Shown: piece by piece, positions 1 to 54,033 of the stretch
Numbering within the stretch: position 1 is the stretch's first letter
Layout of the letters: each line of letters starts with the position of its first letter
Assembly (NCBI GenBank): GCA_050084515.1
Contig: CM114271.1
Coordinates: forward strand, 17,608,001-17,672,000
Reading direction: 5' to 3'
DNA length: 64,000 nt
Origin: Blasia pusilla
Taxonomy: Eukaryota
The notes under the pieces: generated by a model
Seen by the model: the letters and a program-made list of their open reading frames with translations, nothing else
Database searches by the model: none
Told to the model about the DNA's origin: nothing
Position numbers and translations under genes: made by a program

Positions 1-1
1 C

Positions 2-650
2 AGATTCAGCAGGCAGGCATCCTTAGCGTCTTTTTCACCGCACTTGCTACTTTATGGCCGAGAGCCAGATTTACCTGCGGCCATTCGTCGAGATGCTGGT
101 GAGGTGCTGGACCTTGATGACCCCAGATGTATGGGTGCGAGCTTGTTCTCAGAGGGCTGAGTTATTTCAGAGAGTGATGCCCATGGCGTTTGAGAACTTG
201 GCGATTGCACAGCATCGGGATACGTTGAGGTATGCGACTATTCGGGATGGTGGTTATCGACCAACTATCCGGAGGTTTGATCAAGGAGATTATGTCTACT
301 TGCAACAGACGGCACCCACGATGTTGGATGTGACTGCAGGGCGCACTATCCTTAGAGTGCGTGATATTTTGCCATCAGGTGTTCTCTTGCTGGAGGGACG
401 CGATAGTATGGTATGGAAGGACCATGTGCGTAATTGTGCGCCATGTCACCTTCCTAACATTGATGGTACAGTAGATCCGAGCTTAGAAATAGTTCCTGCA
501 GGCTTGCATTGTATGTTGTGTGGTTCTGCCCGTGGTGCGGCCACAATGCTAGGCTGTGATGGGTGTTCAAGAGGATGGCATATGGCATGTTTGACGCCAC
601 CTCTCACTAGGGTTCCTCAGGGACGATGGATGTGTCCCAGATGTACATAG
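2..650 (+). pseudogene. Retroviral-type integrase C-terminal part fused to a PHD finger (frameshifted near the start)
   Basis: Frame 2 reads RFSRQASLASFSPHLLLYGREPDLP (end of integrase core). ORF 54..650 has FDQGDYVYL...HVRNCAPC (SH3/GPY-F-like region) and then CMLC...CDGC...WHMAC...WMCPRC, a C4HC3 PHD finger. Confidence 0.88.
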
Positions 651-821
651 AGTAGGTCGTTCTACATTCCGACTTGTGTCTGTGACATGGATGACAAGAA
701 GGCGACTAACGATGGGGCCACATGAGCACCCGACCTTCTTGCTCTTAGCGTCCGAGAGATGTATATCATGGTAGGTAGGGATAGATGGCTATCTGGAGTT
801 AGAGGGACCTAACCACCAGCT

Positions 822-830
822 AGGGGGGCG
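822..830 (+). promoter_or_regulatory. Polypurine-tract-like sequence AGGGGGGCG
   Basis: Lies downstream of the integrase and directly before repeat B. An equivalent motif occurs in family B at 7883-7892 (-). Confidence 0.65.
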
Positions 831-958
831 ATTGGAGATATTTTGGTACTTCTTGTCTCGTTGTTTGGATGCCATGAGTTAGCATGGGATCATGCGTGTT
901 TGTGTGTGTGTTCGGTGACAACGATGTATGTTGTGTAGCGATGTGTATGCGCACGACA
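831..958 (+). repeat. 128-bp direct repeat B1 (second copy B2 at 1472-1599)
   Basis: ATTGGAGATATTTT...GCGCACGACA is present twice with only a few substitutions. Confidence 0.95.
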
Positions 959-960
959 AG

Positions 961-1410
961 TGTCACGTCTTTTAGGATAGATCGGTGAGATCTAATAGAG
1001 CGCCTTCGTGAGTAGTGGAGGACACGCTCAGTAGGTCGCGGATGACCTGCTGAGGCCCCGGAAAACCTGAGAGAGCCGGTTTCCCCCTTGTTTCGGCTCA
1101 TTTGGAGCCATATTGAGGAACTTACTATTTTAGGTAAGTACCATTTTGAGTATATGATCGACTTTATATTTTTGGTAAGTGGCCCTTGACCTCCTACATC
1201 AGGTCAAGAGCCAAGGAGGTGACTTGGGAGAATAGGTTACCATGGAGAGAGCTTGGGAGAGGGGAGGGGTATACCTCAAGAAGAGAGAGCTTGAGAGCTC
1301 ATTCTCTCTTTGTTGAACCTCTTGGCATGAGGCGGCGGAGCTATGGTACCTTGCCTTGTGAGTGATACCCAAGCCTCTAATTAGGAGAGTGGTTTTGGTT
1401 TGACATGAGA
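961..1410 (+). repeat. LTR-like repeat A of family A (other copies at 7281-7733 on - and 53653-54033 on +)
   Basis: Starts TGTCACGTC. About 450 bp are clearly shared between the three loci. Confidence 0.92.
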
Positions 1411-1471
1411 GAGAGTGCACACCTTTGAGAGCTATGGTGTGAGATGGTGGAGAGAGAGATTGGATCCTACT

Positions 1472-1599
1472 ATTGGAGATATTTTAGTACTTCTTGTCTC
1501 GTTGTTTGGATGCCATGAGTTAGCATGGGATCATGCGTGTTTGTGTGTGTGTTCGATGACAGCGATGTATGTTGTGTAGCGATGTGTATGCGCACGACA
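1472..1599 (+). repeat. 128-bp direct repeat B2, right terminus of the element
   Basis: Copy of 831-958. Ends in CA at the junction with unrelated-orientation RT sequence. Confidence 0.93.
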
Positions 1600-2100
1600 G
1601 CCGCCACTAGTACAAACAATGAACATTTTGGTTCGTGAGGATCGATGCCCCAAAATGCCATCTTCTGCTTGTCCTCCAATCTGATAGGTAGGTGATGGTA
1701 TCCGGCTCGTAAATCTAATGAACTGAAGACCTATGCATACCCAATCATATTTAAGATCTCCAGAGGGGTGGGCATGGCATACCTATCGAACTTTATTTGC
1801 TGATTGATAGGTCGGTAATCTCCACACATCTGCCTATCCGTCCTGTTGCCATGCACATCCTTCTTGGCGGGCATGATAGTGGCAGATGCATACTCTCCAT
1901 ACAATATCTCCACTAGTCGTGCTCCAACCAAGTCCTGCCTCCTACTCTGAATCAGAGCCCTCTCCATATCACTGTACCTGTAGGGATTTCGAAAGATTGG
2001 CGTGTCACTCAACAACTCAAAGCAGACCCCTGGACCCTTCAACATACCCAAATCTTGCATGCTAAATGCAAAACAACTCCTATAACTCCTAAGGAACTGG
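1600..2100 (-). pseudogene. Reverse transcriptase N-terminal half (Ty3/Gypsy), decayed
   Basis: PIFRNPYRYS, YASATIMPAKKD, RQMCGDYRPIN, DRYAMP, KMAFWG. Confidence 0.9.
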
Positions 2101-2487
2101 TGTATCCGGCGCCGCTCTCCTCCTGTCTATTTAGGGCCCATATTTGGCTCCCAAGTCTCCATCGTGAAAATGGTAGAACTCTCCGGCACGGGTGTCGGTG
2201 GTTGCTATGGTGCAATTATGTCTCGGACAATAGAACTCTCATTTCCACGTGCAGTACTCGGAACCACGCTCGATGCTATGGCTACCATCTCATAACGTAT
2301 CTGCAAAACATCCCAAGAAGTCAAAGGGTGTCTCTCCCGATCACCTCGGCCTGGTGTGTCGATCTTCTTGGATCTCATCCCCAACCACTGCCTCAACCGT
2401 CTCGGTAGGCATAGGGCTCACCAACGCAACAACTGTGATCTTTGCATCCACAAACAATGCTGCTCAGCTACTCCTAAGCTAAAAATT

Positions 2488-3445
2488 CATGTCAAGAAAT
2501 TCAGGTCCATCACCTGACCCAAGATATGACGTCGTAATGCCTCTCATATTATGACGGTATTACAGTCACTCCTGTGGGGAATCCCATCGCTCCCTCTTGC
2601 TCTTTGGCGTTGGGCTCCACCAATCGCTGTACCTGGTCATCCCAAACCAAGCCTGGTCCGGCCTCCTTGAATTCATAAGAAGCGGGAAAACTCACCAAGG
2701 TGGGAAAGGCTGCATGTGGCATGCAAATCTTGTTGGCCACAGTCAACGGCGGTCGATCATCATGCCGTACCACCTGTGATCGATGACCTCGATCCATAAT
2801 ACAATCGACCAACAAATTGGATGGGCGCTCCACTCTCGCATATGCGAGAGTGGAGCGCCCATCCAATTTGTTGTGGTACCAAGTTGGTCAACCAAAGACG
2901 CGGGCGGTGTGCTCTAGAACCTACACTCACCGTATCTAGCAATACTGCTAGCCGATCCATGCGCGCACCTGATGTGCACTCGTCACCACGCGAGACCTCG
3001 AATCGCCCAAAATTGGCACATTCTCTCGAATATATGCTAAAGAACAAGGCTGATGCTCCTATAAATGTCGCAAGATCTGCATTTTCTCCCAAAACAATCT
3101 AGACTGAGTGTCAGCTAACCCCCTACCTTGTCCAACACTCCATTGGCCCTGACACGGCCGACCAGCAATGACCAAGTCTATGGTCCCTACTTGCTCCAAG
3201 TCCCGCCCGAGCAATGAAATGTCCCTTGGTAGGGAACTCTAGTAACCCTAGATGGCAGACGCAGGCAACAAGTCGGGAAAGTGGAGGCAAAACTACGCCA
3301 CATGATGAAGTTAAGCGCGCCTTGCAACATCATCAATCTCCACATACAGGTACTAGTGCACATGTACACCCGACTGCAAAACAATAGCTAACCCAGTGCT
3401 CATCCCTCCAAAGAGATCCAACACCCAAATACCCTCCTCTAGGAT
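2488..3445 (-). pseudogene. DNMT3-like C5 DNA cytosine methyltransferase domain inside retrotransposon pol
   Basis: Manual translation gives motif I IWVLDLFGGMSTG, motif II YLYVEID, motif IV IDLVIAGRPCQG, GLADTQSRLFWE, motif VI YIRENVP, motif VIII LDTVSVGSRAHRPRLWLTNL, motif IX EQEGAMGFPTGVT and motif X ILGQVMDL. There are several stops and frameshifts. Confidence 0.92.
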
Positions 3446-4399
3446 GCGTCATACAATGGGTGTGGTATACAAGGGCATCATCATAGCACTCTTGACTACC
3501 TTGGGTTCCTTTGACGTGTCACGCTCTGGTGCAAACGTCTCGCTCCACGCGGTCTGCACATGCTTAGTGGCTAAGCATCGCAACTCCTCAGTCAAGCCCC
3601 AAAGCGGCACCTCTCCTCTCCTCCACGGATAGATGCGCATACCATGACACTCCTCTCCATAGAAATGTCAGGAACGAGAGTGTACCTTGCATGGACATGT
3701 CGCTCAATCAAATCACTAGGCCAAGTGATGGCATTGCTAAAAGCTGCTAAGGTCGCCATCTCTCCCGATCGTCGTTCAATCACTCCACTCTTAAATTGAA
3801 CGAGTAATGAACAAAGTTTTCCATCATCGGACTCCCATCCTGGTCTGTAGGATGCTGACTCCTTCCAGTAATCCAGGGAAAATCCCATCGGGTATAACAC
3901 TGCTCCACCAACCAAGACGTCGTAGGACCCTGCATCGCTCACTATCGCATTGGCTCGCACCACATACTCATCTGTAGGATGTCCTGGGCGCATCCTCACC
4001 ATGATCTCCTATCGGGTGATATACTATGTGGTACTCGCTCCATCCAAGGATGTCTCTATTTAGAATGGACAACGCTCCACATCAACTCTCGTCAAACCCA
4101 ATCCTCTAAATGAAGCTTTCCCCAACATCAAGGGTTACGCTCCTAAATCCAAGAAGACGCGCTGAGCACCAAAAGCTCTACCTTTGGGCTCATATTTTTT
4201 ATGCTCATATTTTTGATGCTCCTCCTGGGCATAAAAAATATGAGTCGTCGCTATCGTTTCTCCCATTGCCTTCCGTGCATGCACACCAAGAACATCACCA
4301 ACTCTTCGGGAACTCTGATCAGGACCCATCGATGGGATCCTCATTGCCTCGGACAACATGAAAGACTGAGGAAGCCTGGCTTGTTTCTTGGCATCCCCT

Positions 4400-6091
4400 C
4401 GCTATGGATCCAACTCTACGACTGCTCCACTCGTCATAATTGCGGCAACCTCCATCTGGGCAATCCCGCACATCCAACCAAGATCCTTCATATCTCTGGC
4501 TGCTCCATATGGTGTCGATGCCATGGATCCGGCATCGGGTAACCTCAATCCCATAGCAGCAATCTGCTCCTGTAGCTGCTGTATCTGAGCAGCCATCCCA
4601 GCCTCACGTGCAACATCTCTCTCCATGCGTCTAGGTAGTGGGACTCTACCTCATCCATAGGCAACTCCACCACTCTGTCGGGCAACTCTAGCTCCTCTTC
4701 CCCCAACGAGACCACCTAGTGCATAACCTCTAGGCCTACTCGGACCGGCTACTTGCTCTAGTGCCCTCTTTGGCCCTCAGTCCGGACGTAACCCAGGGTG
4801 TAAAGTGAAACACCTGGCGCGTGTGTGACCATACCTCTGACAATATTCACACTGATAACCTCTTGGTGAAGCACCATCTCCTCCTCTATGGTGAGACACA
4901 CGTCCATGACCTTGACGAGTGCAATCACCCTGATGATGTGCTCCACCACATGACCAACAAATAATCGTAGGCGGTTGCTTGTGAGCCACATATGAAGGCG
5001 CAGGTCTCTGTGGCAGGGCCTCTGGGTATCCCCCCTGAGCTTGTGGTGCCACAGACCTATCTCGGAATCCACGTTGGTGCATTGGTGGTGTAGACAATCA
5101 TGATTGCTCTCACCCACAATCCATGGTGGCTACACTCTCCTCCGCCATGTTATGCTCAATATTCTCGGCGATTTTAAAAACATCTCTCAATGTAGGAGAG
5201 GTGTTCCTAAGAAGCACCCCCTTCCGCACTCGTATCCTCAGGGTTCGATCTAGCATCGCGTACCATGACTGGATAGTATGAGCCTCTATCACCCCCCGAG
5301 TGACGTTGATCAACCGGCGCAAGCGAGTGTAAGCCTCACGCAAACTCTCACCCGGGCGCCTTTGGAAGTCGTGGATGCTTTGCAACTTCTCCGTCTGTAC
5401 TCCCTGGTAGCACGCCCACAATTCAGCAAAGAACTCAACCACGCAGTTAAATCTGGGACGCACCCGATTGGACGGTGGGTGCAACTGGTCCAATGCAAGT
5501 GACCCCTCCTAGAACATCACTAGTGGAAGAGGAAGTAGCCTCTCTTGACTCCTTCTCCTCATCTGGGAACACCTCCGTCCATGATACATAGTGTGGGTCA
5601 TAGTAGAGTTGCCATGTCTCAATCTCCTAGGCATATGTGTGGGAGAACTCATGGTAATCGTCCATGGGTGCCCCCTCTAAGTGCTGGAACATACCGTTCC
5701 ATGTTGTAAATGGGTTGAACTCTCTAGAGTTCCTAGCCCACTGTGAGTCGCACCAACTCCTAAACTCAACGATGAAGTCGTGCAACTCTATCGTGCCTAT
5801 TGCACTTGAGAACCTACGCAGTCCTCTACCTCGGTCATCCATCTCGTACGCCCAAGCAGTAGGACTACTCAATGTGAGTGCCAAAGCACTACTCAACTCC
5901 TCCACGCCCTCCTCCTTGTCTGAAGATAACATAGAAGGAGGTCGAGGTAGTCCCGCACGTGGAGACCCTCGAAACCTCACACCACTTTGAGTAAACCCTA
6001 AAGAGCTACTCTCAAGTCCACTACTTCGCGTCTCTAAACCCCGAAAGGATGCCGTGATGATCCTCGTGCCCCTCTCACCGATCACTCTCAA
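4400..6091 (-). pseudogene. Gag of family A copy 2 (fragmented)
   Basis: Retrotransposon-gag-like FQRRPGESLREAYTRLRRL and two CCHC-type knuckles, spread over several frameshifted ORFs. Confidence 0.8.
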
Positions 6092-7994
6092 TCTTGATAG
6101 TAATCCTTCAATAACTCAAACTAAATATGCGGCACTCAATCTATACTCTCTTAGTGAGACGTGTACTGTGCGGCAACAAGCGGTGTGGTCCGGCAAATCA
6201 ATTGATCTATCGTCTCATCGAAAAACCATCCTCAACTCTAGACATCCCACACGGGTCTATATCCCCTAAACCAATACATCATCGATGCTCTCACCATGAG
6301 CACAAAACCCAATATCCCAAATAACTTCCCAATACCCGAAAATCCCTCACACGTGCAGGGTAAGAGACCACAATGGATAACTTGACAAGAATGTCGATGT
6401 CGCTCCTCGGCAGTTGCAAATCTCAACCCCAACTTGATCGTGCATACAACTCCTTCAATTAGCAAGTCGTACTCCTCTCGTATAAATGTTGCTCAAACCT
6501 CCTCAGTATGTGGTGCAGATCCAGCAATACGGCACGGAACGGCTATAGAACGGCACGACACTCGATAATGGGATGCAGCACTCCGCGGCATACCCTACTC
6601 ACGCAGTGACGGTGGATCATTGACGGTGACGGTTGACCATTGACGGATGACTGTTGAAGGCGACGGCCGCCGCCGGCGCGGTGGATGGTTTAGGGTATGA
6701 ACAATTTTACCCTAAAAATCGCCTAACAATGGCAATTTTGCAAAATCAGCCAAACTTTCTGCTAGTAGCTCTAAATTGCAGAGTGTCTATTGCATAGCGT
6801 GCACAACTTTACGATCTACAATGGCGTCAAAAAATATTTTGAATAAGACTTTTTAATAAAACGAACAAGGATTTTTGTAAACCCCAACGTCTCTTCTCTT
6901 ATAGAAATTTTGGCAGTGCTTCCGCGCTGATTTCTCCTAATAAAAATATAAAACCTATAAAAATACAAATCAAAAAGCTACATGGTGCTTTTGAGAGCAC
7001 TGGAATGGGGCAACCTGACCCCATACTCAATCCCTATTAGGAATTGGGCAGCGCTTCCGCGCGCCACTCTCTCACACAAAAAATGACACACAAATATCCA
7101 AACATTGTGGATCTTGCTCTCGTGAGCACTCCCATGAGCCCTGAAGTGGGGAACACGATCCCCAACCTGCACCAAACATCGCGCAACTAGCAAGTTTCCC
7201 CATGAAGCTCTTTCATCCTCTCATTTCTCTTTTTGTAAAATAAGGTGAAATCTCTCTCACATGTGTGTAATCTCACATATCTCTCTCAATGTCAAACCAA
7301 ACCCACTCTCCTAATGAGAGGCTTGGCTTACACTCACAAGGCAAGGGACCATAGCTCCGCCGCCTCGTACCAAGAGGTTCAACAAAGAGAGAATGAGCTC
7401 TCAAGCTCTCTCTCCTTGAGTTATACCCCTCCCCTCTCCCAAGCTCTCTCCATGGTAATCTATGCTCCGAAGTCACCTCCTTGGCTCTGGACCTGATGTA
7501 GGAGGTCAAGGGCCAATTGCAAAAATAGAAAATTGACCACATACTCAAAATGGCACTTACCTAAAATAGTAATTTTCTCAATATGGCTCCAAATGAGCCA
7601 AAACGAAGGGGAAACCTGCTCTCTCAGGTTTTTCAGGGCTTCAGCAGGTCATCATTGACCTCTTGAGTCTGTCCTCCACTACTCGCAAAGGCACTCTACT
7701 AGATTTTACCGATATATCCTAAAAGACGTGATAGTTGCCACGATAAATCTCTATCTATCGGCTACTAAGATGTGACAACTGTCGTGCGGATACACATCGC
7801 CACACAACACCACTCTTCCCAACACACGGGTCGATCCATCCATAAACCAAACAACTCATACATATACATCGAGACCCAACAACCGCCCCCCTAGTTGGCA
7901 GTTGGATCCCCCTAACTCCATATAATAAACACCTATGTACCTGGCATGATTTACTATCCTATATACATTGGTGCCGTCATCCACACAACACTGC

Positions 7995-8065
7995 CACATT
8001 GCAGCAAGCCCCCGTGTTGATCCCTCCAAAGAGATCTAACACTCTCGTACCCTGCTCCAAACATA
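7995..8065 (-). pseudogene. C5-MTase motif I remnant
   Basis: LEQGTRVLDLFGGINTG, followed by a deletion that jumps to the 3' UTR. Confidence 0.8.
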
Positions 8066-11000
8066 GGCACGACTCCACCTCTGGCTCACGAGTTCGTCTC
8101 CAACAAAAATAACAAAGCTCCGTACCATGGGAAGAGACACGCGCCCTGACATGTCTCTCCGTGGGACTATCCGCTGCGGGAATTTCCTCCGCATGTGTGA
8201 TCCTCGATATCGCCTTTCCGTAACCCCAACGCCAAACATGCCGTTTTCCCTAACATCAAGGGTTGCGGTTTGAATCAAGTAGGGCGCGTGGCGGGTCGTA
8301 CACCGTACATGTGGGACTAACCAAGAAAAACACTACTACTCGATTATCCAACAACACCACACCCGGTGTGATCATGGCTCGCTCAATGGCCGGTCGAGGT
8401 GGCATATCTACCAACTTTTTTGCCACAGAGCGTGCCTTGACTCAGTGGGAGAGGTCCCGAGCACATGCTCCAAGGGAAAGTCTATCACCTCCTCAACTAC
8501 CTCTGAACGAGAGGAAATCATCTCTCCACGCTCACACAACATGGTGGCCAGCCGAAATACCTCCATTGGTCCAATTCCCAGCGTTGCCAACTCCATGGCG
8601 GAAAACAATGGAGCGTGGCTCACCCTAATGGCCACCTCCAACAACATGGTCGACATTGGCTCCTCCCGAGCCCGTATAGGAGTCGTCTCTCCAACTCCTC
8701 GTGACGTCGACGCACCTATCCCACCCATAGGTACTACCAGTCTTTGAGGCACCATCGACGGTGTATGTAGTGCCTCTGACAATGTGATAGACTGGGGAAC
8801 CCTAGCGTGCCGCCCATTGTTCCCCTCCTCTAGGTCAATCTCAACCCTACCTCTCGATGGGTCGGTTACTCTCGCAGCACCCCGAGTCACCACCGAGGCA
8901 GCCTCAACCTGAGTCGCATTACATATAAATCCCATCCCTGCAGAATCCTCACCAGCATTGGGGTAAGATGTGGAGGTTGGCGCCACATTAGCTACTCTCA
9001 GCTCCGCGCCTGCCTGCATCATCGTCATGGCAGCAATCCTATGCTTCAATTGATCGATGTGAGTAAGGAGCGCTGCATCGGATGCACGTCCTCCATCTCT
9101 TGTGATTGGTGGTGGCACTCTACCATGACGATCATCAACTTCTCTCACCCCCAGGCCCTTTGCCTTCCCCTGGACGTATCGCTTGGCAAAGATCAAAACA
9201 CCTATCCCTAGTGTGACCATATCGGTGACAATGATTATACTGCAACTATGATAGAGCCATCCTCTATGGCTCCTAAGAAATTGTAGGCACCCGTGGCCCT
9301 CTTCCATGTTGTGGGCAGTCCCTCTGCCTATGTGGCCTACCACACGTCCAACAAGCCAACCCTGGTCCATGCTGGGAAACATATGTTGGAACGGGCCGTT
9401 GCATCATCGACTCATGATATCCGCCATGCTCTCTAGGCCTAGCGGCCCGCTCTTGAGGTACTAGTGCATGTTGGGGCACCTTTGGGTCTACTCCTACTCG
9501 TCCACCTGTTGTATCACACAAAAATCCCCTTGGTTAGCACCTGCTTCTCACTCATGTTGAGTTCTACCCTCTCAGACAACTCAAAGACCACCTTCAATGT
9601 GGGCTTTGCTGTGTGAAGCAACATCGCATCCCGAACTCTCTTCCGTAGCTCCTCATCCAACACCCCGTACCATTACTCCATTGACAACGCCTCAATCACC
9701 CGATATGTTGCAATGATCAATCTCCGCATGCGCGTGAATGCCTCTCTCAGACTCTCACCGGATCGTCCCTGAAAATCATGTAGACTCTTCAGCTTGTCGG
9801 TGTGTACGCCTTGGTAGCTCTTCCCCAAGTGTTGGAAGAACTGCACTGTGGGACTGAAGCTAGGTGGCCCTCTACTACCACAGGTCTCTGCCATATTGTG
9901 TGTATCACTGCTCTCCTTTCCATCTAGTCTTTGGGCTGATGGTGTGGGTCTCTCTCCTCTCACAATCCCATGAGATGCCTTGCGACCACTAGTGGATGCT
10001 TACCCTCGAGCCCAATACATCCTCCAGGCATCAATCTCTTCTGAATATAGCGATCAGAACTCCATATAATCATCCATCGGAAGACCCTCCAAGTGCTGGA
10101 ACAACCCCTTCCATGCCATGAAAGGGTTGAACCATGTCGGGATCCGTATCTCCTAGAAGTCGCACCACGTGTCAAACTCTTGGATGAAGTCATCTAGGTG
10201 GATGGTGCCCACTTCACCCGAGAAATGACGTATGCCCCGATGGTTGATGTCGACCATCTCCTGCCAAGTGACATTGCCTTCGTCTGCGATCTCGTCACCA
10301 GACCGACTGTTTAGTGATGACGATCCAGCTACGGACGGAAGTCGAGGTTGCTCCTTGCTCATAACCCCTCGATATCTCAGTCCACTTTGTGTCACACCAC
10401 CACTACTGCTCAAACTACCCCATTTTTCCCAACCCTAGAAGAACGCCGTGACGATCATCTTGTGTCACCCGCTCAAACACTGAGACTCACCAAGAGTCTC
10501 CCGCGCTCCTCACTAGCTCACATATGCTAATGGTAACCTCGTGATGACACACCTGGCTTCACGCACACTCAACACTCGGGCTTACCCTGAGCCTCTCGAC
10601 TATCTCACCTAATCACCAACATACGCTCATGTCATACACTCGATCCCTACTCGCAAACCGCCATACAAACATGCTAAACATGAAAGAAATCTACACTCGT
10701 CACCATAACTGAACCCATCTAGCACTTGCTACTACCCAACCCAGCACTCTCATTGACACAAGACAAGTGCAGGAAAAGGGACTCGAATGGATAACATGAA
10801 TACTCCCACCAATCAACTACTCCATCAACACTCACTCCTCCATGTGGCTCGGCAACCTCCGCAACACAACCATCTCCTTGCACAACGAGTTGATCCTCCC
10901 ATCACCGGATGCAGACAACCCATCGGCATCATCATATGCATCTCCATCAGTAACACTTGCAAATCCTTGCCACGCTCGAAAAACATCAAGTCTCAAAAAT

Positions 11001-11609
11001 CTCTCAGCCACTCCCGATCACTACTCTCAACTTTTGGCACAAATCAATCTCATTATCAATAATCGTGCAACATCTCCACGTAGCCCAGCCATCATGTTCC
11101 TTTCCTAGTAGACGCTCATTCTTCCACTCCAATCTCAACTTTAGCCAACGTTGGGCCTCACGGCTTTCTTCTACGCACTCCGGTGCAACCTCCCCACCCG
11201 CTTCCTTAGGCACGTGGTCCTATTCAGGACCTTGCCCGTGTCCACACCTCCTACACTGTAGTTCCCTCACTACCTCATGCACGCATCCCTATGACACATG
11301 TCTCGTCATTATTCCAAGCTCTCTAATGGCCCAGCTCTGTTCCCAACAAACTCAACCTTAGGTTACTTATGTGGTTTCCCGACCTGCACCCTTGCCTTGT
11401 TCTCATTAGATATGGGCACGTTGCCCTATGCAACGTCCACCTTGCCCAATCCTGGCCTTAATTGCCTCCCCGATTGTACCTTCACACGTACCTACCAGGT
11501 ACCATCATACCTGGCCTAAGATCCTGGATTCATAAAGGCTCCTATCTCCACGCACCTGGGCATGCGGCCCTATGCACTTGGGCCCAACCTTCTTCCTTTA
11601 ACTTTTGAG

Positions 11610-12715: not shown

Positions 12716-14698
12716 GTCCTAGGAGCGGGAGATAGAGCCTCTCAGGCCCGTCTGGCTATGCGCTTGCACCGGCTTCCTCCAACGCACTCCTCTGACGCTC
12801 ACACATGGGACGTAATCAACCATGTCACAAAGCTGATGTGGTTCCGCGCCCTTATCCACTTTGTACTTAGTAGGATCTTGTAACCTAGTTCACATGTTTT
12901 ACTAAACGGCCCTCTAAAAACTGCAAGATCTAACTCTCATCCCGCTTGCTCAAGACATTCCCACTTTCCGGTGATGCTACACATGCCGCCACACTCTGTG
13001 CTACCCTGTGCTGCTCGTTCTCATCAATCTGCACCAGTAAAATCCACAAAAATGGACAGCGCTTGTGCGCACGGCCTTCCAAACATAAAACTAAAAACAC
13101 AAATGCCAACCGACGTCTCAAGGAGCTCCCAACCGAGGCATCGCGCTTGCCGACCTGCAAACAACAAATTCCCTGCCCCCCTTGCATCTTTCTCACGTAA
13201 AATCAAGAGTAAAAACGGCACACACGGCCAAAAACTCCACTCCTCAATCTACATGGGCATATTGAGCCTCGTCCACCCTACGCTATCAAGGATCCACACG
13301 CTAGCACCCAGTCCTAACTCACACACACAAACAAGACAGGATGCTCCAACGTCCCAACATGAGAAAGATGGCTTGAAAAAGCCATCTTCGTCCCTTATAT
13401 AGATGTGGGAATAGCCAAAAGGCTCTTCCCCCCAAAATAGCAACCCCCTAGTAACCTACGCGCATAGGTTACCAAGGGCGGATGATCTGCTAAACAAGTC
13501 ACCCAGTTGTGAAAGACCCCAATAAGAAAGTCGTAAAAAATGACGTTCTTGACACAACGGATCTATCCTCAGCCTCATCCAACACTTCGGGACGAAGTTA
13601 CACTCAAAAAAGTCGGATGGCTCTCTATGCTGTCGCCACGATAGATTTCTACCTATCGGCTTCTAAGATATGAGATCCCACCCAAGAAAAACTCCGACCC
13701 CTCAATGATATCTATATCGATAATGTCAAGGGGGGACTCCAAGGGAAGGGAGTGTGCAGATCAAGGGAAGCCAAGGATTCTAGATGAGGTAACCTTGGGA
13801 GATCCATTGACTCGAACTATAACCAATATATAATCCATACTAGATCTAACCAACTACCCATATAATCAAATCCTTCCCATGAGAGGAGTAGATCAAGGTA
13901 AGTAGTTGATGAACAATGCAATGAGTGACCTTGGGATTGACACCAATTATTTATCCCATGGGCAATTGGTTGTTTATCAAAGTGTGCACACGTAGGAATG
14001 GTTCTCCTACCATGAACTTTGTTGTGCTTAGTGGACTTTCCTTTGTTCGATGTACTATAAACCATCTCTTCTACAAGGTTACCACAAAGATATAAGTTAA
14101 GATAATAATGCATCCCCTCACAATGCTTTATAACTATTTACCTTATTGATAGTAAAAATTCTGCTAAGTTATCTCCATTCTTGATTTCAAAGTGCATATG
14201 CATCTACCCCATCCCAAAATTATTCATAACACTTTCACACTCACAATCCATCTCTATTCACAACACTTTCACACTCAAGCATGGTAATATCTTTCTCATG
14301 ACTCCATACATTGGCAAATAACGGATGTATATCCCATATCTTTCTCTTGATTCTCATGTTGGAAAATCAGGCTTATCTATCCTCAACCTTGCTTCGATCA
14401 TACTCTTGCCAACATGAAGATCTGACTTATCATGTATTCCTCTTTTGATGCCACATGATCTTTCACTCTAATATTTATGTCCTACGGAAACTATGAATGT
14501 CGATCTTGGAAGCACAAAAATTGGGAATTTTTACATTACTAGAGACTAGGCAAACTCCAAGGTGGGGGGGGGGGAAGGGAGATATTTGATTATCATCACA
14601 TATATATATGTGCGACCATAAAAAGACATTGAGAGACGTCAAAATTTGGCACACCTTCCACCCCCTCTCTCTCATAGACAGAGTCCATTCAACTTTTG

Positions 14699-14832
<134 letters not shown>

Positions 14833-14844
14833 GTAGATAACCAA

Positions 14845-14985
14845 GAGGTTAGCTGAACAAACATAAAGTCCTCTTGAAGAGGTCTTGGGTTCAACTCTCC
14901 CCTTGGACAGTGGGGGGCGATCTCAACCCCAGAGCAGTGGCGTCCCCTATCTAGGGCATGGATGGTCCATATTCGAGAGAGAAAA
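14845..14985 (+). mobile_element. Possible tRNA-derived SINE
   Basis: Weak A-box (TAGCTGAAC), B-box GGTTCAACTC near 14888, GC-rich body and purine/A-rich tail. Confidence 0.3.
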
Positions 14986-15203
14986 CGCCTTGTGTGCCTT
15001 TCATGTGTGTGCCTTGACAATGCTCCTAGGTTGAAAATATGGATAAAATTCTAGGCCTTCACAAAGAAAAAAAAAAAACAAAAACCAAATCTCCTCAATA
15101 AGAACCCCAAATCTAGATATGAAGGTTCCCTTCACATCGGATGCGATGTCAATTTCACATATGTGGAAGGGGTCCCATAAGCCAGTTCGACTTACCATGG
15201 ACT

Positions 15204-16443: not shown

Positions 16444-19400
16444 ATGGCGTCAACAGGGTCCAAGCAGCTCCAGCTGAGCACGAGTATTCAGGCTAGTTTT
16501 GGCAATCCGGAGGACCCCGATTACGTATTCGAAATAGTCGCCAAGTAAGATTTCAAACTCAGCGATGTGTTTGCGATTGTCAAATCTGTCAAGCGGGTCC
16601 AGGATTGCCTGTGTAGGTGTGAAATTTCCATGCGGATGGGTTTTGATCAAAGGGCCTTGAGAGATTATGCTGATTGGTTATCCAATATTTGGCGTTTTTT
16701 GGATTCATTTGGCTCAATGCAGTGTGCGTTGATGAGATTTGGATTTGTTGGTATGAATTATAGTCGTTTCAGATTTGAGTAGGGGAACAGGATTTAGGGT
16801 TTAGGGTTCAGCAAAAGCTCAAATGGCGATGGCGGAACTGGTTCTGGAGTTTGAGTAGTGGCTGCTGTAGTCTGTGGACGTCTGTACATGGGTTGATTCG
16901 TGTGTTTAGCGGTGTTTGGTTTCGGAGGTCCGAACCTAGTACTGAGTTTTTGTGAAAATTGGACGGGTCTCAGTGGAGATAGATCTGTTATGGCAGTTTC
17001 TCTTTCGACAAATGCCATCAAGCTCTACTCTCCTGCCACGGGAGCATTCTTGGGAGACTGCTTAGGGCACACAAGCACTGTCAGTGGCATCTCATTTCCT
17101 GATCCCAATTCGCCAGCGTTGCTTGTTTCTTCTTCAGCCGATGGGACAATCAGGACCTGGGACATTCGACAACGCAAAGAGGTGCGTTTCGCAGCTGTAT
17201 GGGAACTAGTTTGCTGATGTTCTGGAATGTTCCCATGTAATGCTCAGGGTTTATGAAAACTGAACGAGTTTTGACATACTTGCAGAGTCTAGTATTTAGA
17301 CATCCCAATGCTGGCAGTGAGATATGGAGCTTCGATTGTTCAAAAGTCAACCACCTCATCGCTGGAGGTGGAGAGGCTCAGGTGATCATCGCCCACCCCT
17401 CGATACAGTTCAATACGTGCATTTTATGAGTTTTGCATGAATCGATAGCTTCTTTACCGTAGAAGGGATACTGGAATTGAATTTGGTTTTGAGTGCATGA
17501 GTTTTAAAATAATGTATCTTATGAAAATACTGCTCTAGGTGCTCCTCTGGGACTCAAGGAACTCGAAGTTGGCAGCCAACATGGACGAATGGCACACTGA
17601 AGCTGTCACTCAGGTTTGTGATCAGCTCATATATTTGGCCTCACAAATCAACTCATTTTGCCCTGGTGATGTCTGATACTTTGCTGGGAATTGTAGATAC
17701 GCTTCAAATATGTGAGTTATTTATGGCTTCCAAACTAAAGAATTTTAAGGTTTCTCGAAACCAGGTTTTGTATGATCTGAAAGTCAAGCGTTCAAGGTGT
17801 GAAAGAGCTCTTCGTGTGACCTTATCTCAGTGGGTGGTCAGTGTGTGTCCTTTCATGCCCTTCACTCTCAGCCTGGGTTGATCACTGATGGATTACTCCC
17901 GCTTGTTTAGAGCAAATGTGGGACGTTCCATATGGAAGCATCTCTGACATCCAAAGGAGCTTTGAAACTCACCCTCATATAATGCCTAAGGAGATACCTG
18001 TAAGGAAGATTCAATATCCTACGTCAGTTGCATACCAAATCTTCCATAAGTTGCATACCCAATCTTCCATAAGTAAGAATTGTACTGGTTAGCTTATACT
18101 CCCACTCTGCCCATACATTGTTGGGCACAGACTCGAGTACATCTCAGGGGCATTAACTGTGGTTTTACTCTGCCATTTGGCCTCTCATCTCCATTTCATT
18201 TTGGTAGCCTGATTATCTAATTTTTTCCAGACCTGAACGCATGGCATTCATGTTGTGCAGGTTCACTTTCACCCAACAAGGACGGAGGAGCTAGTTACTG
18301 CATCTGTGGATGGGCTTATTAACATTGCTAATACAAATGAAAGCCTCAGCAGTGACGAGGGTCTTAGTACTGTACGTTCATAAACGTCTTCATTTAATTT
18401 TCAATCTAGCAACTGTAACATGCTTTAGCAGTTTCACAGAAGTGTCTGTCAGACAAGTTTGTAGACAGGGGGATGGTGTTGAATTGTAATGATTCACTGT
18501 CAACAAGTGAGCTCTTAGAATGTCATTTTGTATGGTTCCTCATAGGTCTCGCAGAAGAGCTGAAGATAACCACATTAATGACTTCAAGTCAGTTTACATG
18601 TATGTTACTGATATTTTATGACTTTTGGTGCTATTACAGACAATGAGTGTTGGAACATCAATAGCAAAAATTGGATTCTATGGGAGTTCAAATCAGCTCC
18701 TTTGGTGTCTCACCCACATTGAAACCCTCAGGTGACTTTCTTTTCTGGTGGTTGTAATATCTTAAGTAGCAGGCATTGTTGTGGATTTGGAAGATGTAAT
18801 TCAGTCATTCATATGGACAACAGATCATTATCTGGTTATGCTAACAATAGATTAGAAGAGCGTTGTGTCTGAGGAAAACCAGATCTAGTTGTACCATGGT
18901 TCACTCTGCATTTTTGAATTGCAGTATCTGGAATATGGATGACCAAAACGAAGCAGCTACTTTCACTGACACACGTTCAAAGGCTTCTTACAATTGGAAC
19001 CTACCTTCTGTAAGTTTTAAGCTGTCCACTTCCGTCAAAAGCAGCTGAAATAGAAGTACAATTATTTTGTTCAGAAATTATTTTATGTTAGGTTGGTGGG
19101 GCAATTTGAGTTGATGAATCTTCACCTAGCAAGTTTGTAGGCTTTATAGCAAGTTTGTAGGCTTTGATTTGAGGCTCTGTGGAGCGTTCATCTCGTTTAG
19201 GGTGGTCCATCCAAGAAGACCACTTCACAATGTTTTAATGGATGAGAGAGCAGGTGGAGCTGATATCTTTCCTCACATATTCAGGTGAACTATCTCATCG
19301 ACTGTCACTCTCCAGCTGGGACCGAGAACCTCTGGCTTGCAGCAGGCAACAATGACGGTTCTGTAGGGTACTTTCCTGTGAGTTTTACCAAGTCTAGTCA

Positions 19401-19659
19401 CCCAGATGTTCCTACTCAGGGTGCCTTTGGTGAAGTTGGGGCCGTCTTGGAAGGAGGTCACCAGGGTGTGGTGCGGAGCATTTGGTTGTCTCAAAACATG
19501 GAATCTGAGCAACAGCTCTTTGGTTGGACTGGTGGGGAAGATGGTAGGCTTTGCAGCTGGTCACAAAGTGGCAGTTCTGAGAGAAGTTGTGCTTGGGTTT
19601 CGAGTAATTTAGTCATGAAGAAAGGCAGCAGCTCGAAACAAAGACATAGTCCCTATTGA
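16444..19659 (+). CDS. GTS1: WD40-repeat protein, WDR89/GIGANTUS1-like (multi-exon; span given)
   Basis: Exon 1 MASTGSKQLQLSTSIQASFG..DYVFEIV. Later exons read AVSLSTNAIKLYSPATG..GHTSTV..SSADGTIRTWD, HTEAVTQV, ASVDGLI, LWCLTHIETL and LEGGHQGVVRS..WTGGEDGRLCSW..RHSPY*. Introns have GT-AG borders. Confidence 0.9.
16792..16808. promoter_or_regulatory. Telo-box-like TTTAGGGTTTAGGG in intron 1 of the WD40 gene
   Basis: Two plant telomere units near the 5' end of the gene. A similar AAACCCTA lies at 50020-50027, upstream of TAF2. Confidence 0.45.
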
Positions 19660-26552: not shown

Positions 26553-27357
26553 AAAATTATGGAAACCTATTACCTACCAAGAAACCCCTCATTTCCTACA
26601 AGTGTCTTCCCGACCAGTTTATGGCTTTCGGCCTTTAAACGAAGCGGATATCTTTTACTCTTACCAGCTGCAGTTACTCCTAACCCAATCATTGTTGTGA
26701 ATGGGATCCTAATGGATAGATCATAAAGCACCCTTAATGTTATCTTTGGTGTGCAAATTATGTTATCCATTGTCAATGAAATAGGTGTTCATAAAGGTGA
26801 GGCCATACTCCATGACACACATGACTTAATATTTTAAACAAACAAAAGAAAATTGCCAAGAAAATGGGTTTGCGATTCCGTAGACATATGGAAAATGCCT
26901 TCATTGATTACGCTTGGTTTTCTTTTTCCATCTAACCGATTCCCTTCTCTTCTCTTGGGCATGTTGATAATTATTCTCTTCCCACCTTATTAAACTTATT
27001 AAAGGGTCACACTTTCCATTGTGTTCCAAAATTGAATATTTTTTTATTATAAAAAATTCGGAGACATCTTAAGGGATGTCATGATGAACATTGACATAGC
27101 GTAAATGAAGAAACTATCCACTAATCTACTATTATTGGAAAGTGTTCTATCACTTTGCAAATTCCTCCATCGATGAGATCTTTTTAAATTAATCAAAATG
27201 GCGGCTGAAAATTAATCGTGACAATTTAATCGTGCCATAACTTGTAGGTTTGGGAACATGGATGGATTCCGCGAATGCGTGTTGTGCACGCATATGCAGC
27301 AGAAGACCGAAATGGGAGATAAGGAAGGCTGTGGAAAGCAGCATCAGAGAAGATCTC

Positions 27358-49200: not shown

Positions 49201-49958
49201 CTCCCCTTGAAACTTGAAGTTAAATCAGGTAATTTTCAACTAACGGAGATCCCCCTATCTGATTACTCCAGCAGAAAAAAAGTACCTCCTGCATTGGGCC
49301 AACTGGCGGAGGACTTTCAATGTCTGCTTTTGTCTCGACCGATGCCTGCTCACCGCCGTTATCCTTATCACCCTCCATCACTGACGGAACCATCGGAGAA
49401 GGAGCTTGGCTGGCATCCATGGGGGTAGCAACATCAGCAAGATGTATCAGCAACTCGGGGATCATTTCCTCATCCAACGTGGCCACATATCTCCGATAAC
49501 CAGCATCAGCCGCGGCATCCGAGGAAAGGGATGAGTACGACTCATTGCGTAATTGTTGCTGCTTTACAGCAGCAATCTGCTGCAGTTCAAAAGTGGCGGA
49601 AACACCGTCCACCAAAACCTTCTCGATGTGCAGGCCACGAGCATGCAGCCCTATTGCTCCACTCTTAGGAGCTACCACTGTCAGCTCCGTATACCTGTCC
49701 ATTATATTTAATGAGATTACTTTAAGTATTCCCCACCTCGCAGCATTCCCGGGGTGCCCCTTACATTGATGACAAATACTTAACACAACGAAAATGCAAA
49801 TAACACGTCGCTCACCCAAAAATGCGTTGCTGCGCAATATCAATTGCAACGCAGAGCTTTTGATTGCGCACGGTACAGCAGCAACTCTCATCCGGCCTGG
49901 TTGCATCCGCAGTCGGGGCACGGTTATCCCTCTGCTTCTGCTTTTTCTGCTTTGCCAT
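40223..49958 (-). CDS. TAF2: Transcription initiation factor TFIID subunit 2 (multi-exon; span given)
   Basis: [118 protein letters not shown], and a Lys-rich C-terminal exon. Confidence 0.95.
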
Positions 49959-53652: not shown

Positions 53653-54033
53653 TGTCACGTCCTTTAGGATAGATCGGTGAGATCTAGTAGAGTGTCTTTA
53701 AGAGTAGTGGAGGATAGGCCTAGGAGGTCGAGGATGACCTGCTGAGGCCCCGAGAAATCCGAGAGAGCAGGTTTCCCCTTCGTTTTGGCTCATTTGGAGC
53801 CATATTGAAGAACTTACTATTTTAGGTAAGTATCATTTTGAGTATATGATCGACTTTCTATTTTTTGGTAAGTGGCCCTTGACCTCCTACATCAGGTCAA
53901 GAGCCAAAGAGGTGACTATGGAGAATAGGTTACCATGGAAAGAGCTTGGGAGAGGGGAGGGATATATATCCCAAGGAGAGAGAGCTTGAGAGCTCATTCT
54001 CTCTTTGTTCAACCTCTTCACATGAGGCAGCGG
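53653..54033 (+). repeat. Family A repeat A (left terminus), interrupted at 54034
   Basis: TGTCACGTCCTTTAGGATAG... matches 961-1338. Confidence 0.92.

Follow-up and report, generated by a model that had tools for sequence, protein, structure and literature searches.

Cytosine methylation is the main weapon of the host against transposons, and because of this a transposon that carries its own de novo methyltransferase presents a paradox. Two retrotransposons of this kind, which the original prediction had named as precedents from Symbiodinium and Klebsormidium, are indeed described in the portions of de Mendoza et al. (2018, PMC5890265) cited here as SymbioDIRS-Dnmt3 and KnitGypsy-Dnmt3, and the authors hold the two DNMT acquisitions to be independent. 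CG de novo methylation in yeast was shown for SymbioDIRS-Dnmt3; for the Klebsormidium domain no DNA methylation was detected in yeast, a result that the authors called inconclusive. KnitGypsy-Dnmt3, from Klebsormidium nitens, is given the repeat structure of a DIRS element in the legend to Fig. 4c of that paper and an A-coding-B-A-B arrangement in the legend to Fig. 1e. As far as these portions go, the gypsy-type case has rested on one alga, few copies and an inconclusive enzyme assay. The same kind of element can now be placed in land plants, in huge numbers in the genome studied here and also in Marchantia (the model liverwort), Calypogeia and Sphagnum.

The window, by which we mean the whole 64,000-nucleotide stretch of Blasia pusilla DNA that was analysed, contains at 7737-1620 on the minus strand what is, with a probability of about 0.88, a dead, 3′-truncated Ty3/gypsy-type copy (element A) of a land-plant family that encodes its own DNMT3-like methyltransferase (MTase); this figure applies to the identity of the element and leaves aside the role of the enzyme. 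A whole C5 cytosine methyltransferase can be read at 3529-2460, extending somewhat past the interval first noted (2488-3445). The six motifs that the original prediction had named, in order and in pol orientation, were all located on the minus strand: motif I (VLDLFGG) at 3424-3404, motif IV (AGRPCQG, with PCQ and its catalytic Cys) at 3166-3146, motif VI (IRENVP, with ENV) at 3031-3014, motif VIII (AHRPRLWLTNL) at 2912-2880, motif IX (GAMGFPTGVT) at 2593-2564 and motif X (LGQVMD) at 2522-2505. These motif names (I, IV, VI etc.) are those of C5 methyltransferases, and the order I, IV, VI, VIII, IX, X is unrearranged, in contrast to that of plant DRM. The frame was said to be broken by stops and frameshifts, and the homology path does contain 8 stop codons and 3 frame changes (near 2949, across 2874-2810 and near 2548). 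A perfect palindrome lies inside the domain (Table 1), with one arm of genuine coding sequence and the other replacing about 32 bases, homology being lost across it. When the domain was read in one frame with X at the stops (2530-3529, minus), Pfam PF00145 matched at 29.2 bits (E 8.1e-7), above its gathering cut-off of 22 bits, so that the methyltransferase call held up in the profile search; PF00145 also matched inside a 1533-residue frame of the window (26.0 bits, E 7.6e-6), and relatives score 35-51 bits. A protein search with the X-at-stops MTase recovered 30 proteins of comparable length, the top one at E 2.4e-92 with 51% identity across 98% of the query, and 16 longer ones. Identity to the best-matching relatives amounts to 50-52%, with 93-99% of the domain aligned (E about 1e-92), a similarity that is far above chance.

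The MTase had been placed between protease and reverse transcriptase (RT), and homology puts a protease region upstream at 4182-3628 and RT downstream at 2168-1625 (Table 1). Gag, protease (PR) and RT of element A were positioned by tblastn homology with relatives; Pfam detected no gag, protease or RT family in the window frames at E up to 10, and Retrotrans_gag is weak even in Marchantia P0034 (E 0.054). The putative protease is assigned from weak Pfam matches, a motif and homology. In relatives the Pfam protease families fall below cut-off (gag-asp_proteas, E 0.16 in P0036; Asp_protease_2, 22.0 bits against a cut-off of 24.3, E 2.8e-4, in P0185), and the active site appears in element A as a mutated form, DSG to DLG (FLDLGA at 4155-4138, LLDSGA in relatives). 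The protease region further contains the peptide YDVLVGGAVLYPMGF at 3924-3880 (minus), and its relatives carry RVLLDSGAQPLMLGK. For RT, the segment 2168-1746 is 65% identical to that of Marchantia MARPO_0091s0058 (P0037, RT residues 691-831; E 7.6e-52). Element A has no B repeat adjoining its left terminal repeat A1, and no homology to its leader was found elsewhere within the window. Its inactivation is mostly through decay of the C-to-T type: differences between reads and window comprised 133-134 A>G and 160-162 T>C vs 43-53 G>A and 43-49 C>T, and 129 of 226 stop-making changes in metagenome loci are C>T. Six read differences fall inside the MTase, none of them in the 8 stop codons (among the 40 of 627 differences listed).

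Table 1. Positions of element A and of related copies and fragments in the window
Feature	Positions	Strand	Basis or remark
Element E, integrase C-terminus and PHD finger	2-650	+	Opposite orientation to element A; Pfam PHD 44.6 bits, E 1.5e-11
Element E, polypurine tract	806-828	+	GACCTAACCACCAGCTAGGGGGG, once in window, 0/100 shuffles
Element E, right block: B1 831-958, A2 959-1471, B2 1472-1599	831-1599	+	B1/B2 98% identical
Element A, RT N-terminal part	1625-2168	-	Cut at about 1620 by nested copy E; KMAFWGIDPHE ends 1632
Element A, in-frame TAG (TAG CAA CCA) between MTase and RT	2205-2207	-	Family's conserved stop position
Element A, DNMT3-like C5 MTase, motifs I-X, broken	2460-3529	-	Motifs, PF00145, relatives
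Perfect palindrome inside MTase, 32+32 bases	2810-2873	.	100% complementary, no spacer
Element A, aspartic protease region (putative)	3628-4182	-	48% identity to P0034 residues 627-813
Element A, gag, broken	4222-5845	-	tblastn with Marchantia P0034 residues 9-534 and Sphagnum P0044 residues 3-377
Element A, two CCHC zinc knuckles in gag	4959-4921 and 4851-4810	-	Peptides located
Element A, untranslated leader from A1 to gag (inferred)	5846-7279	-	Position and similar length (1434 vs about 1150 bases) in L070, L047
Element A, left terminal repeat A1	7280-7737	-	89.6% identical, inverted, to A repeat 959-1471 of neighbouring copy E
Element B, older and divergent: gag, PR, MTase motif I (8060-8010), then deletion	7738-10455	-	37-54% amino-acid identity
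Element C, gag and PR, ends just before MTase	55308-57691	-	DNA 80-82% identical to element A
Further MTase fragment, motifs I-IV	63627-64000	+	Deletion and stops at catalytic site; runs off window

The order of the family is A, leader, gag (with two CCHC knuckles), PR, MTase, in-frame TAG, RT, RNase H (RH), DDE integrase, PHD finger, polypurine tract and B-A-B, and Pfam finds RVT_1, RT_RNaseH, Integrase_H2C2 and rve in this order in the relative P0185. The element had been called an LTR retrotransposon, a description that stands with respect to a retrotransposon with the gypsy-type domain set and fails with respect to ordinary LTRs, the repeats being split as A-coding-B-A-B. Instead of the canonical two-LTR layout, a lone A stands at the left end and B-A-B at the right, with the polypurine tract before B1. 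This arrangement is complete in loci L070 and L047, and L006 and L058 have A1/A2 only; in 8 of 12 complete-looking loci examined there was no flanking repeat pair. Within the window the repeats comprise B-A-B at 831-1599 and A alone at 7737-7280. Pfam found no tyrosine recombinase (Phage_integrase) in relatives, which have rve and Integrase_H2C2 instead.

The position of the MTase within a single open pol frame, as first proposed, has to be revised, because a conserved in-frame TAG terminates a gag-PR-MTase frame in which the MTase comes last. Of 53 on-target rows, 51 carry a stop at the codon between MTase and RT (TAG in 39, TAA in 12; the other 2 read TAY), as do 50 of the 52 locus rows; CAA follows it directly in 47 rows, and the stop lies in one frame with both of its neighbours. 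Soon after the MTase the Marchantia proteins P0033 and P0034 come to an end, probably at about the position of this stop. Not every relative has the stop: in the deeper one P0185, a single protein of 2188 residues spans both MTase and RT. No RNA structure after the TAG received covariation support from RNAalifold (34 sequences, covariation term -0.67); only 5 of the 29 predicted pairs show any compensated double change, and these do not fall together in a single helix, so that a read-through stem or pseudoknot at this place has no support.

The MTase is a feature of the family across copies, species and subfamilies. It is present in three of the four window copies that reach that far, element C stopping just short of it; each of four DNA runs yielded 7908-11467 read contigs on 1600-6200, with 30 of 30 bins covered. 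Among metagenome contigs, 131 of 277 pattern matches encode a relative, and the best 80 of the 131 were kept as loci. The whole domain order was found on one strand (tblastn) in 19 of the 25 loci of at least 11 kb, an outcome which, together with the other copies in the window, speaks against the one-off insertion that would have undermined the prediction. A library of representative proteins gave 398 clusters at E up to 1e-30, and the best 150, which were those listed, are all family members; the ESM Atlas returned generic PF00145 clusters only, one from Streptophyta and the others from phages or unrecorded taxa. The PR-MTase-RT order occurs in annotated polyproteins of Marchantia polymorpha (8), Calypogeia fissa (1) and Sphagnum fallax (1), the Marchantia relatives being gene models known from the protein alone, and a host exon in the window, of the amino-acid permease BAT1 (82%), is closest to liverwort proteins. 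These relatives and this exon bear out the proposal of a land-plant lineage of DNMT-bearing elements. Elements of this kind were already known from a streptophyte alga, and in the openly readable main texts searched we found no earlier report that named bryophytes or any other land plants as hosts of DNMT-bearing retrotransposons. Surveys of bryophytes can overcount host DNMT3 genes through the label "DNA (cytosine-5)-methyltransferase" that the Marchantia proteins bear.

Three copies are nested within 10 kb of the window, E interrupting the RT of A and A, in turn, the terminal repeat of B. Nearly identical polypurine words to that of element E stand directly before B1 in L070 and L047, and its right end, ...GCACGACA, is common to Sphagnum-type loci. 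We rejected the placement of its ORF 27-650 in a clade with the order RT-RH-MTase-INT-PHD: element E (2-650) is 63-77% identical to the same part of metagenome copies with PR-MTase-RT, vs 35-48% for P0045. The 3′ part of element B retains its own polypurine tract, a B repeat and a 43-base stub of the A repeat (7924-7738), where element A is inserted. Elements B and A were also considered as a tandem dimer sharing B-A, which was rejected; their gag proteins share no more than 45-53% identity, the tract and B repeat of element B match copy E at 71%, and A1 matches E at 89.6%. A nested insertion, 43 bases into the A repeat of element B, fits these identities better. At the far end of the window, the MTase fragment at 63627-64000 lies immediately next to the RNase H of an unrelated gypsy element. 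The 59.7-64 kb copy was rejected as a third architecture, RT-RH-MTase: its RT-RH shares no more than 24-40% identity with seven representatives of both clades, and for the MTase piece the identity to the PR-MTase-RT type is 45-59% (DNA 75% identical to element A). The region reads as an ordinary gypsy element abutting an MTase fragment.

The anatomy of the family constrains possible mechanisms, in that the MTase shares a frame with Gag and protease and precedes a conserved stop, a PHD finger terminates the integrase, and the repeats are split yet accompany a DDE integrase. We propose that in active members gag-PR-MTase would, more probably than not, be the main translation product, RT-RH-INT-PHD being made by occasional read-through of the TAG, and the enzyme would therefore be present in Gag-like amounts. 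The MTase would be released by the protease or would act as a Gag-PR-MTase fusion in the particle. More tentatively, it may then methylate new cDNA before or at integration, such that the new copy arrives pre-marked. The composite picture, to which we would give somewhat less than even odds, is that land plants harbor an undescribed and very large clade of gypsy-type elements with a DNMT3 in which the MTase moved into the gag-protease frame upstream of a conserved leaky TAG (TAG CAA CCN), is produced in Gag-like excess relative to RT and integrase, is packaged, and methylates the cDNA before it enters the genome. If so, this MTase would form, with the PHD-finger integrase and DIRS-like split repeats, a self-contained epigenetic toolkit, and the function of transposon-borne DNMTs would become testable in a genetic model plant, because Marchantia polymorpha has apparently open gag-PR-MTase frames.

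An unlikely alternative to cDNA methylation is that the enzyme acts on host chromatin, methylating the insertion site or resident copies of the family, where it could limit copy number or make heterochromatin that the PHD-finger integrase targets. The PHD finger is a reader of histone tails, and the integrase ends in such a finger (Pfam E 1.5e-11). Three copies of the same kind nested within 10 kb would also suit a preference for such chromatin, but a single nest is anecdotal because nesting is common for any abundant element. Effects on insertion-site chromatin and self-limitation are both discussed as possibilities in the cited portions of de Mendoza et al. (2018, PMC5890265). The place of the MTase in the gag-PR frame, however, favors packaging in the particle over free action in the nucleus.

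The likeness of the MTase to DNMT3 bears on whether its substrate is DNA at all. By comparison with solved structures only, the family profile scored best on DNMT3A (E 5e-16), DNMT3B (2.3e-13) and DNMT3C (4.2e-13), followed by DRM (3.8e-10), M.HaeIII (2.5e-7), DNMT2 (1.6e-4 to 5.7e-3) and DNMT1-type chains (0.23-0.25), and three aligned stretches (motif I; IV-VIII; IX-X) are collinear with DNMT3A. An AlphaFold model of the relative P0002, built from a 41-sequence alignment, reached a pLDDT of 91.5 (a 9-sequence job gave 40.4 and was not used). With this model, all 32 Foldseek matches listed (ranks 1-47) are DNMT3A/B/C (best E 1.6e-18, TM 0.84 on the target). Judged by profile and predicted fold, the MTase is therefore nearer to DNMT3 than to the other C5 methyltransferase classes among the solved structures compared, in line with the DNMT3-like motifs VIII and IX of the original prediction. 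Pfam found none of the companion domains of cellular DNMT3 (PWWP, ADD, plant domain) in relatives, and the published retrotransposon-borne DNMT3s are likewise without companion reader domains in the cited portions of de Mendoza et al. (2018, PMC5890265). These comparisons make it improbable that the enzyme methylates RNA in the manner of DNMT2, be it the genomic RNA of the element or a primer tRNA, since the profile fits DNMT3A/B/C (5e-16 to 4e-13) far better than DNMT2, and the P0002 model superposes on DNMT3-DNA complexes. RNA methylation does have some attraction: it was raised for a LINE-borne DNMT, the Klebsormidium domain gave no DNA methylation in yeast (both from the same portions of PMC5890265), and the enzyme is co-translated with the RNA-binding Gag.

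Even less probable is a reading of the domain as an inactive leftover that persists because it serves the polyprotein structurally or by binding DNA. Intact copies are few, only 2 of 80 metagenome loci being without stops in the MTase (an open gag-to-integrase frame was found in 0 of the 80), and constraint on the MTase is weaker than on RT, with a median pairwise dN/dS of 0.59 (1422 pairs of decayed copies) vs 0.39 for RT-RH. The ratio was 0.90 in the closest pairs (dS <0.05), 0.57-0.66 at dS 0.1-0.5 and 0.19 in 104 pairs with dS >1, which are between subfamilies and have saturated dS. By these estimates the MTase appears to have been under purifying selection between subfamilies, where the value near 1 that would have counted against the prediction was not observed, the 0.19 being subject to saturated dS. 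In an alignment of 41 members (32-76% identical), E183, R225 and N230 are invariant, and C140 and Q141 (PCQ), N184 (ENV) and R223 are at least 90% conserved, indicating that the catalytic residues are nearly invariant across the family. The best-kept residues are thus the catalytic Cys-Gln, the Glu-Asn of ENV and the motif VIII arginines, and this conservation of chemistry speaks against a mere scaffold because a scaffold would not need them. The null reading, in which a fragment of a host DNMT3 gene or pseudogene lies within or was captured by a single copy, found no point in its support and is refuted by the recurrence of its PR-MTase and MTase-RT junctions, both among the proteins of Marchantia, Calypogeia and Sphagnum and at 19 of the 25 long loci, by the MTase in two further window copies and the read contigs that cover the domain, and by the lack of introns and of PWWP, ADD or any other host companion domain.

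Compared with cellular DNMT3 (human DNMT3A/3B, mouse DNMT3C and, in the cited part of Yaari et al. 2019, plant DNMT3), which gives the best profile and fold match and has the same motif order, the element MTase is 20-23% identical, has neither introns nor a PWWP, ADD or plant companion domain, has about 85 residues between motifs VIII and IX, and forms part of a retrotransposon polyprotein. A sister clade with the order RT-RH-MTase-INT-PHD (P0045, P0183, P0192, P0234) has its MTase after RNase H, not before RT; this MTase shows about 30% identity (E 1e-60 to 1e-80 to the same profile), and its integrase with PHD finger 35-48% identity. In the MTase tree the two orders are split by one branch with support 99, with 46 rows that include all 7 of the MTase-before-RT order vs 107 rows that include all 74 of the other. 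The EpiLTRs of Cymbomonas and Euglena, as presented in the cited part of a preprint (bioRxiv 10.64898/2026.05.21.726589), are also of LTR type and also combine a cytosine methyltransferase with a chromatin-reading domain; they differ in that a DNMT4-related domain lies at the 3′ end of pol and that the elements also encode an adenine methyltransferase and a chromodomain. The same part of the preprint sets 'streptophytes (Gypsy-DNMT3)' apart as a case known from before. SymbioDIRS-Dnmt3 of Symbiodinium likewise has a Dnmt3-type domain in its polyprotein and A-coding-B-A-B repeats (PMC5890265), but it is a DIRS element with tyrosine recombinase, whereas the relatives described here have Integrase_H2C2 and rve. 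With KnitGypsy-Dnmt3, as described in the cited portions of that paper, the present family has in common the gypsy-type domains, a DDE integrase, an intronless and unrearranged Dnmt3-related domain in the polyprotein, A-coding-B-A-B repeats and a streptophyte host. This likeness is one of published description rather than of sequence or domain position, no K. nitens protein being among the named matches, and purifying selection on the domain is given there as a Ka/Ks below 0.2, compared with 0.19 here between subfamilies only, at saturated dS, and a median of 0.59. Unlike KnitGypsy-Dnmt3, for which the same portions report few copies in K. nitens (PMC5890265), the family described here has land-plant hosts and is very large.

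A complete C5 cytosine methyltransferase (MTase) is readable at 3529-2460 on the minus strand, within a Ty3/gypsy-type element (element A) that was laid out on that strand by tblastn with longer relatives (see the table). All six MTase motifs of the original prediction were found there in the same order, and the domain, translated in a single frame with stops as X, scored 29.2 bits against PF00145 (E 8.1e-7, cut-off 22) and 26.0 bits within the longer frame. The read matched 30 proteins of similar length (best E 2.4e-92, 51% identity, 98% coverage) as well as 16 longer ones. The frame is indeed broken, as had been claimed, by eight stops on the homology path and three frame changes. A perfect 32+32-base palindrome at 2810-2873 (64 bases, no spacer) lies inside the MTase, one arm being genuine coding sequence and the other replacing the adjoining ~32 bases; the rest of the domain around it is heavily decayed. 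A single read contig (run X4) omits 2796-2872; the palindrome could be an artefact of assembly or the trace of recent hairpin-type repair.

Positions of element A, of related copies (E, B and C) and of MTase motifs in the window
Feature	Position	Strand	Basis
Copy E integrase C-terminus and PHD finger	27-650	+	Pfam E 1.5e-11
Copy E polypurine tract	806-828	+	sequence
Copy E repeat block B-A-B	831-958, 959-1471, 1472-1599	+	repeat comparison
Element A reverse transcriptase, 65% identity to Marchantia RT	2168-1746	-	tblastn
MTase motif LGQVMD	2522-2505	-	sequence
MTase motif GAMGFPTGVT	2593-2564	-	sequence
MTase motif AHRPRLWLTNL	2912-2880	-	sequence
MTase motif IRENVP	3031-3014	-	sequence
MTase motif AGRPCQG	3166-3146	-	sequence
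MTase motif VLDLFGG	3424-3404	-	sequence
Element A protease region, active site DSG to DLG	4182-3628	-	tblastn
Element A gag, two CCHC knuckles	5845-4222	-	tblastn
A repeat, inverted; left end of element A	7737-7280	-	89.6% identity
Copy B polypurine tract, B repeat and 43-base A-repeat stub	7924-7738	-	adjoins element A upstream
Copy B (older): gag, protease, MTase motif I still visible	10455-8010	-	
Copy C gag-protease, ending immediately before MTase	57691-55308	-	
MTase fragment adjoining RNase H of unrelated gypsy element	63627-64000	+	

The domain is DNMT3-like in both sequence and predicted fold. In a search of all PDB sequences, a nine-member family profile matched DNMT3A (E 5e-16), DNMT3B (2.3e-13) and DNMT3C (4.2e-13), followed by plant DRM (3.8e-10 to 4.6e-8), M.HaeIII (2.5e-7), M.HhaI (1.5e-6), DNMT2 (1.6e-4) and DNMT1-type chains (0.23-0.25), and it is collinear with DNMT3A over motif I, motifs IV-VIII and motifs IX-X. 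The AlphaFold model of the relative P0002 (41-sequence alignment, pLDDT 91.5) was submitted to Foldseek; the 32 matches listed in ranks 1-47 were all DNMT3A, 3B or 3C, and among them the best E was 1.6e-18, identity was 20-23%, and TM was 0.80-0.84 for crystal-structure chains that comprise just the catalytic domain.

Three like copies are nested within positions 1-10455. The RT of element A ends at ~1620, where it abuts the right end of copy E, which lies on the plus strand. E thus interrupts the RT of A, and A in turn interrupts the terminal A repeat of B after 43 bases. From this single case, the elements might insert into methylated copies of their own family. Near the far end of the window, an ordinary and fairly intact gypsy element at 59698-64000 (+) (gag 59698-60849, protease-RT 61599-62837, RNase H to ~63660) runs directly into a DNMT3-type MTase fragment. 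At the junction (~63655-63665) neither an integrase nor a repeat was found between the RNase H and the MTase fragment, and the RT-RNase H of this element is 24-40% identical to either DNMT-bearing clade; recombination or a deletion may account for the junction. Interspersed with the repeats, at 27344-28875 (-), 19264-19659 (+), 40223-41476 (-) and 49220-49957 (-), are pieces of host genes, comprising BAT1-type permease exons, a WD40-like ORF, a 417-residue Lys/Glu-rich ORF and another long ORF. The BAT1 amino-acid permease exon at 28088-28585 matches land-plant proteins over ~97 aligned residues, most closely those of Riccia sorocarpa and Marchantia polymorpha (82%), then ferns (78-79%) and the moss Ceratodon (77%). 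These matches make the host a land plant, most probably a liverwort. An ORF at 36283-36717 (+) contains ...ALYGLKQAPRAWY..., which we take to be Ty1/copia-type RT motifs, and the ORF at 14475-15050 (-) is mostly (RE)n, a GA/CT-type microsatellite.

Element A belongs to a large family. Short contigs from four DNA runs of one organism covered 1600-6200 (7908-11467 contigs per run, counted at at least 80% likeness), reaching 30 of 30 bins, the MTase included, although contig depth cannot rank the parts. Among named relatives, the protease-MTase(-RT) order is shared by eight proteins from Marchantia polymorpha and one each from Calypogeia fissa and Sphagnum fallax. In 1.84 billion representative proteins, a profile found 9705 matches at E <=1e-3 and 398 at E <=1e-30, and a scan of metagenome contigs confirmed 131 of 277 pattern matches as relatives, the best 80 of which were analysed as loci; one of them is identical to the named Sphagnum fallax protein over 141 residues. 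The complete order gag-protease, MTase, RT-RNase H, integrase and PHD finger lies on a single strand in 19 of the 25 loci of at least 11 kb; four of the others run off the end, an internal deletion affects one, and another contains a nested insertion. In locus L061 an unrelated gypsy element (RT 32% identity) is inserted in reverse within the MTase, and in L039 a second, divergent RNase H-integrase-PHD copy lies immediately downstream of the first.

When 196 family proteins were sorted by domain order, the MTase preceded RT in 9, followed it in 49, immediately preceded the integrase, without an intervening RT, in 26 and was alone in 112. Pfam annotation of seven long representatives gave one CCHC-protease-MTase-RT-RNase H-integrase and six RT-RNase H-(MTase)-integrase proteins. 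Of these six, all but P0223 have a PHD finger, and three reach PF00145 at E 0.001, the family profile locating the MTase in the other three. A single branch with support 99 separates the two orders (FastTree, 153 MTase domains): one side holds 46 rows, namely all 7 MTase-before-RT rows, the window and all named bryophyte sequences, and the other 107 rows, including all 74 of the other order. Because the tree is unrooted and contains no cellular DNMT3, it does not give the number of acquisitions. P0185 (2188 aa), a representative protein deeper in the protease-MTase-RT clade, unites CCHC, protease, MTase, RT, RNase H and integrase in a single chain.

Most copies of the family are dead. Although 53 of the 80 loci align to P0002 in one unbroken in-frame stretch, the MTase is stop-free in only two (L004 and L006), and none of the metagenome loci had an open gag-to-integrase frame. 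C-to-T changes dominate the decay: C>T accounts for 129 of 226 stop-making changes in the loci, and reads have G for window A at 133-134 places and C for window T at 160-162, versus 43-53 places for each reverse change. Pairwise Nei-Gojobori medians of dN/dS, stop codons skipped, were 0.59 for the MTase (54 copies, 1422 pairs), 0.39 for RT-RNase H (36 copies, 556 pairs) and 0.72 for gag-protease (45 copies, 843 pairs). The MTase ratio drops with distance, from 0.90 (dS <0.05) and 0.84 (0.05-0.1) to 0.57-0.66 (0.1-0.5), and to 0.19 for 104 pairs at dS >1, where dS is saturated, a pattern expected for neutral decay after insertion combined with selected source lineages. Across 41 MTase members that are 32-76% identical, E183, R225 and N230 are invariant and C140, Q141, N184 and R223 reach at least 90% conservation; the conserved residues comprise the catalytic Cys-Gln, both members of the ENV pair and the arginines of motif VIII. 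Our favoured reading, with a probability of roughly 0.4, is that the predicted enzyme methylates the element's own cDNA. Three rivals were weighed against it: action on host chromatin seems less likely, methylation of RNA improbable, and a non-catalytic role for the domain the least credible.

MTase, a stop codon and RT share one frame in all eight loci inspected (...KVFA*QPMA...ETWEP...). After five off-target rows were dropped, the stop was present in 50 of 52 locus rows, or 51 of 53 with the window (TAG 39, TAA 12, TAY 2), and CAA follows directly in 47 rows. The window's TAG CAA CCA at 2207-2199 (-) aligns with the Sphagnum-type TAG CAA CCC, although the flanks differ. Tobamovirus-type read-through uses the context UAG CAR YYA; RNAalifold found no supported RNA structure downstream of the stop. 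P0033 and P0034 of Marchantia begin with methionine and end soon after the MTase, at about the stop position. The main translation product of the family would be gag-protease-MTase, with RT-RNase H-integrase-PHD produced via read-through. Given that P0185 has no stop between MTase and RT, the stop may be a later feature of a bryophyte subclade.

These results bear out the observation behind the original prediction and support its interpretation: element A, itself dead, belongs to the known Gypsy-DNMT3 kind, within a large land-plant branch of it. New features of this branch are its hosts (a model liverwort is one of them), an enzyme placed within the gag-protease frame ahead of a conserved stop, the integrase with a PHD finger, and the sister clade carrying the MTase after RNase H. 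In the portions consulted, de Mendoza et al. 2018 (PMC5890265) describe DNMT-bearing retrotransposons in Symbiodinium and Klebsormidium nitens only, with Marchantia, liverworts and Physcomitrella absent from the text. Passages of later papers cite that work for "streptophytes (Gypsy-DNMT3)" or "streptophytes" (bioRxiv 10.64898/2026.05.21.726589; PMC12344493). The 2025 paper (PMC12344493) also attributes to it retrotransposon-embedded DNMT3s in 'LTR Copia and DIRS', whereas the 2018 wording is Gypsy and DIRS. Full-text literature yielded nothing on land-plant copies, though such sequences may appear in the 2018 and 2025 supplements.

From end to end, L070 and L047 consist of A1, a leader, the coding region, a polypurine tract, B1, A2 and B2 (first and second occurrences of terminal repeats A and B), and flanking DNA diverges directly outside A1 and outside B2. 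L006 and L058 have the A1/A2 pair only, and in 8 of 12 loci examined a flanking repeat pair was not found. The window has the same A-coding-B-A-B layout, divided between copies E and A, and shares with Sphagnum-type loci both the words preceding B1 (GACCTAACCACCAGCTAGGGGGG) and the right end ...GCACGACA. A solitary A-repeat piece at 53653-54033 (+), 89.8% identical to 961-1338, lies beside an ORF at 53073-53672 that presumably encodes a hAT-type transposase. The A-coding-B-A-B arrangement is the one given for DIRS-type elements by de Mendoza et al. 2018 (PMC5890265), whose Fig. 4c legend ascribes a DIRS repeat structure to KnitGypsy-Dnmt3 of Klebsormidium nitens as well; DIRS elements, however, use a tyrosine recombinase, whereas the family described here carries a DDE integrase.
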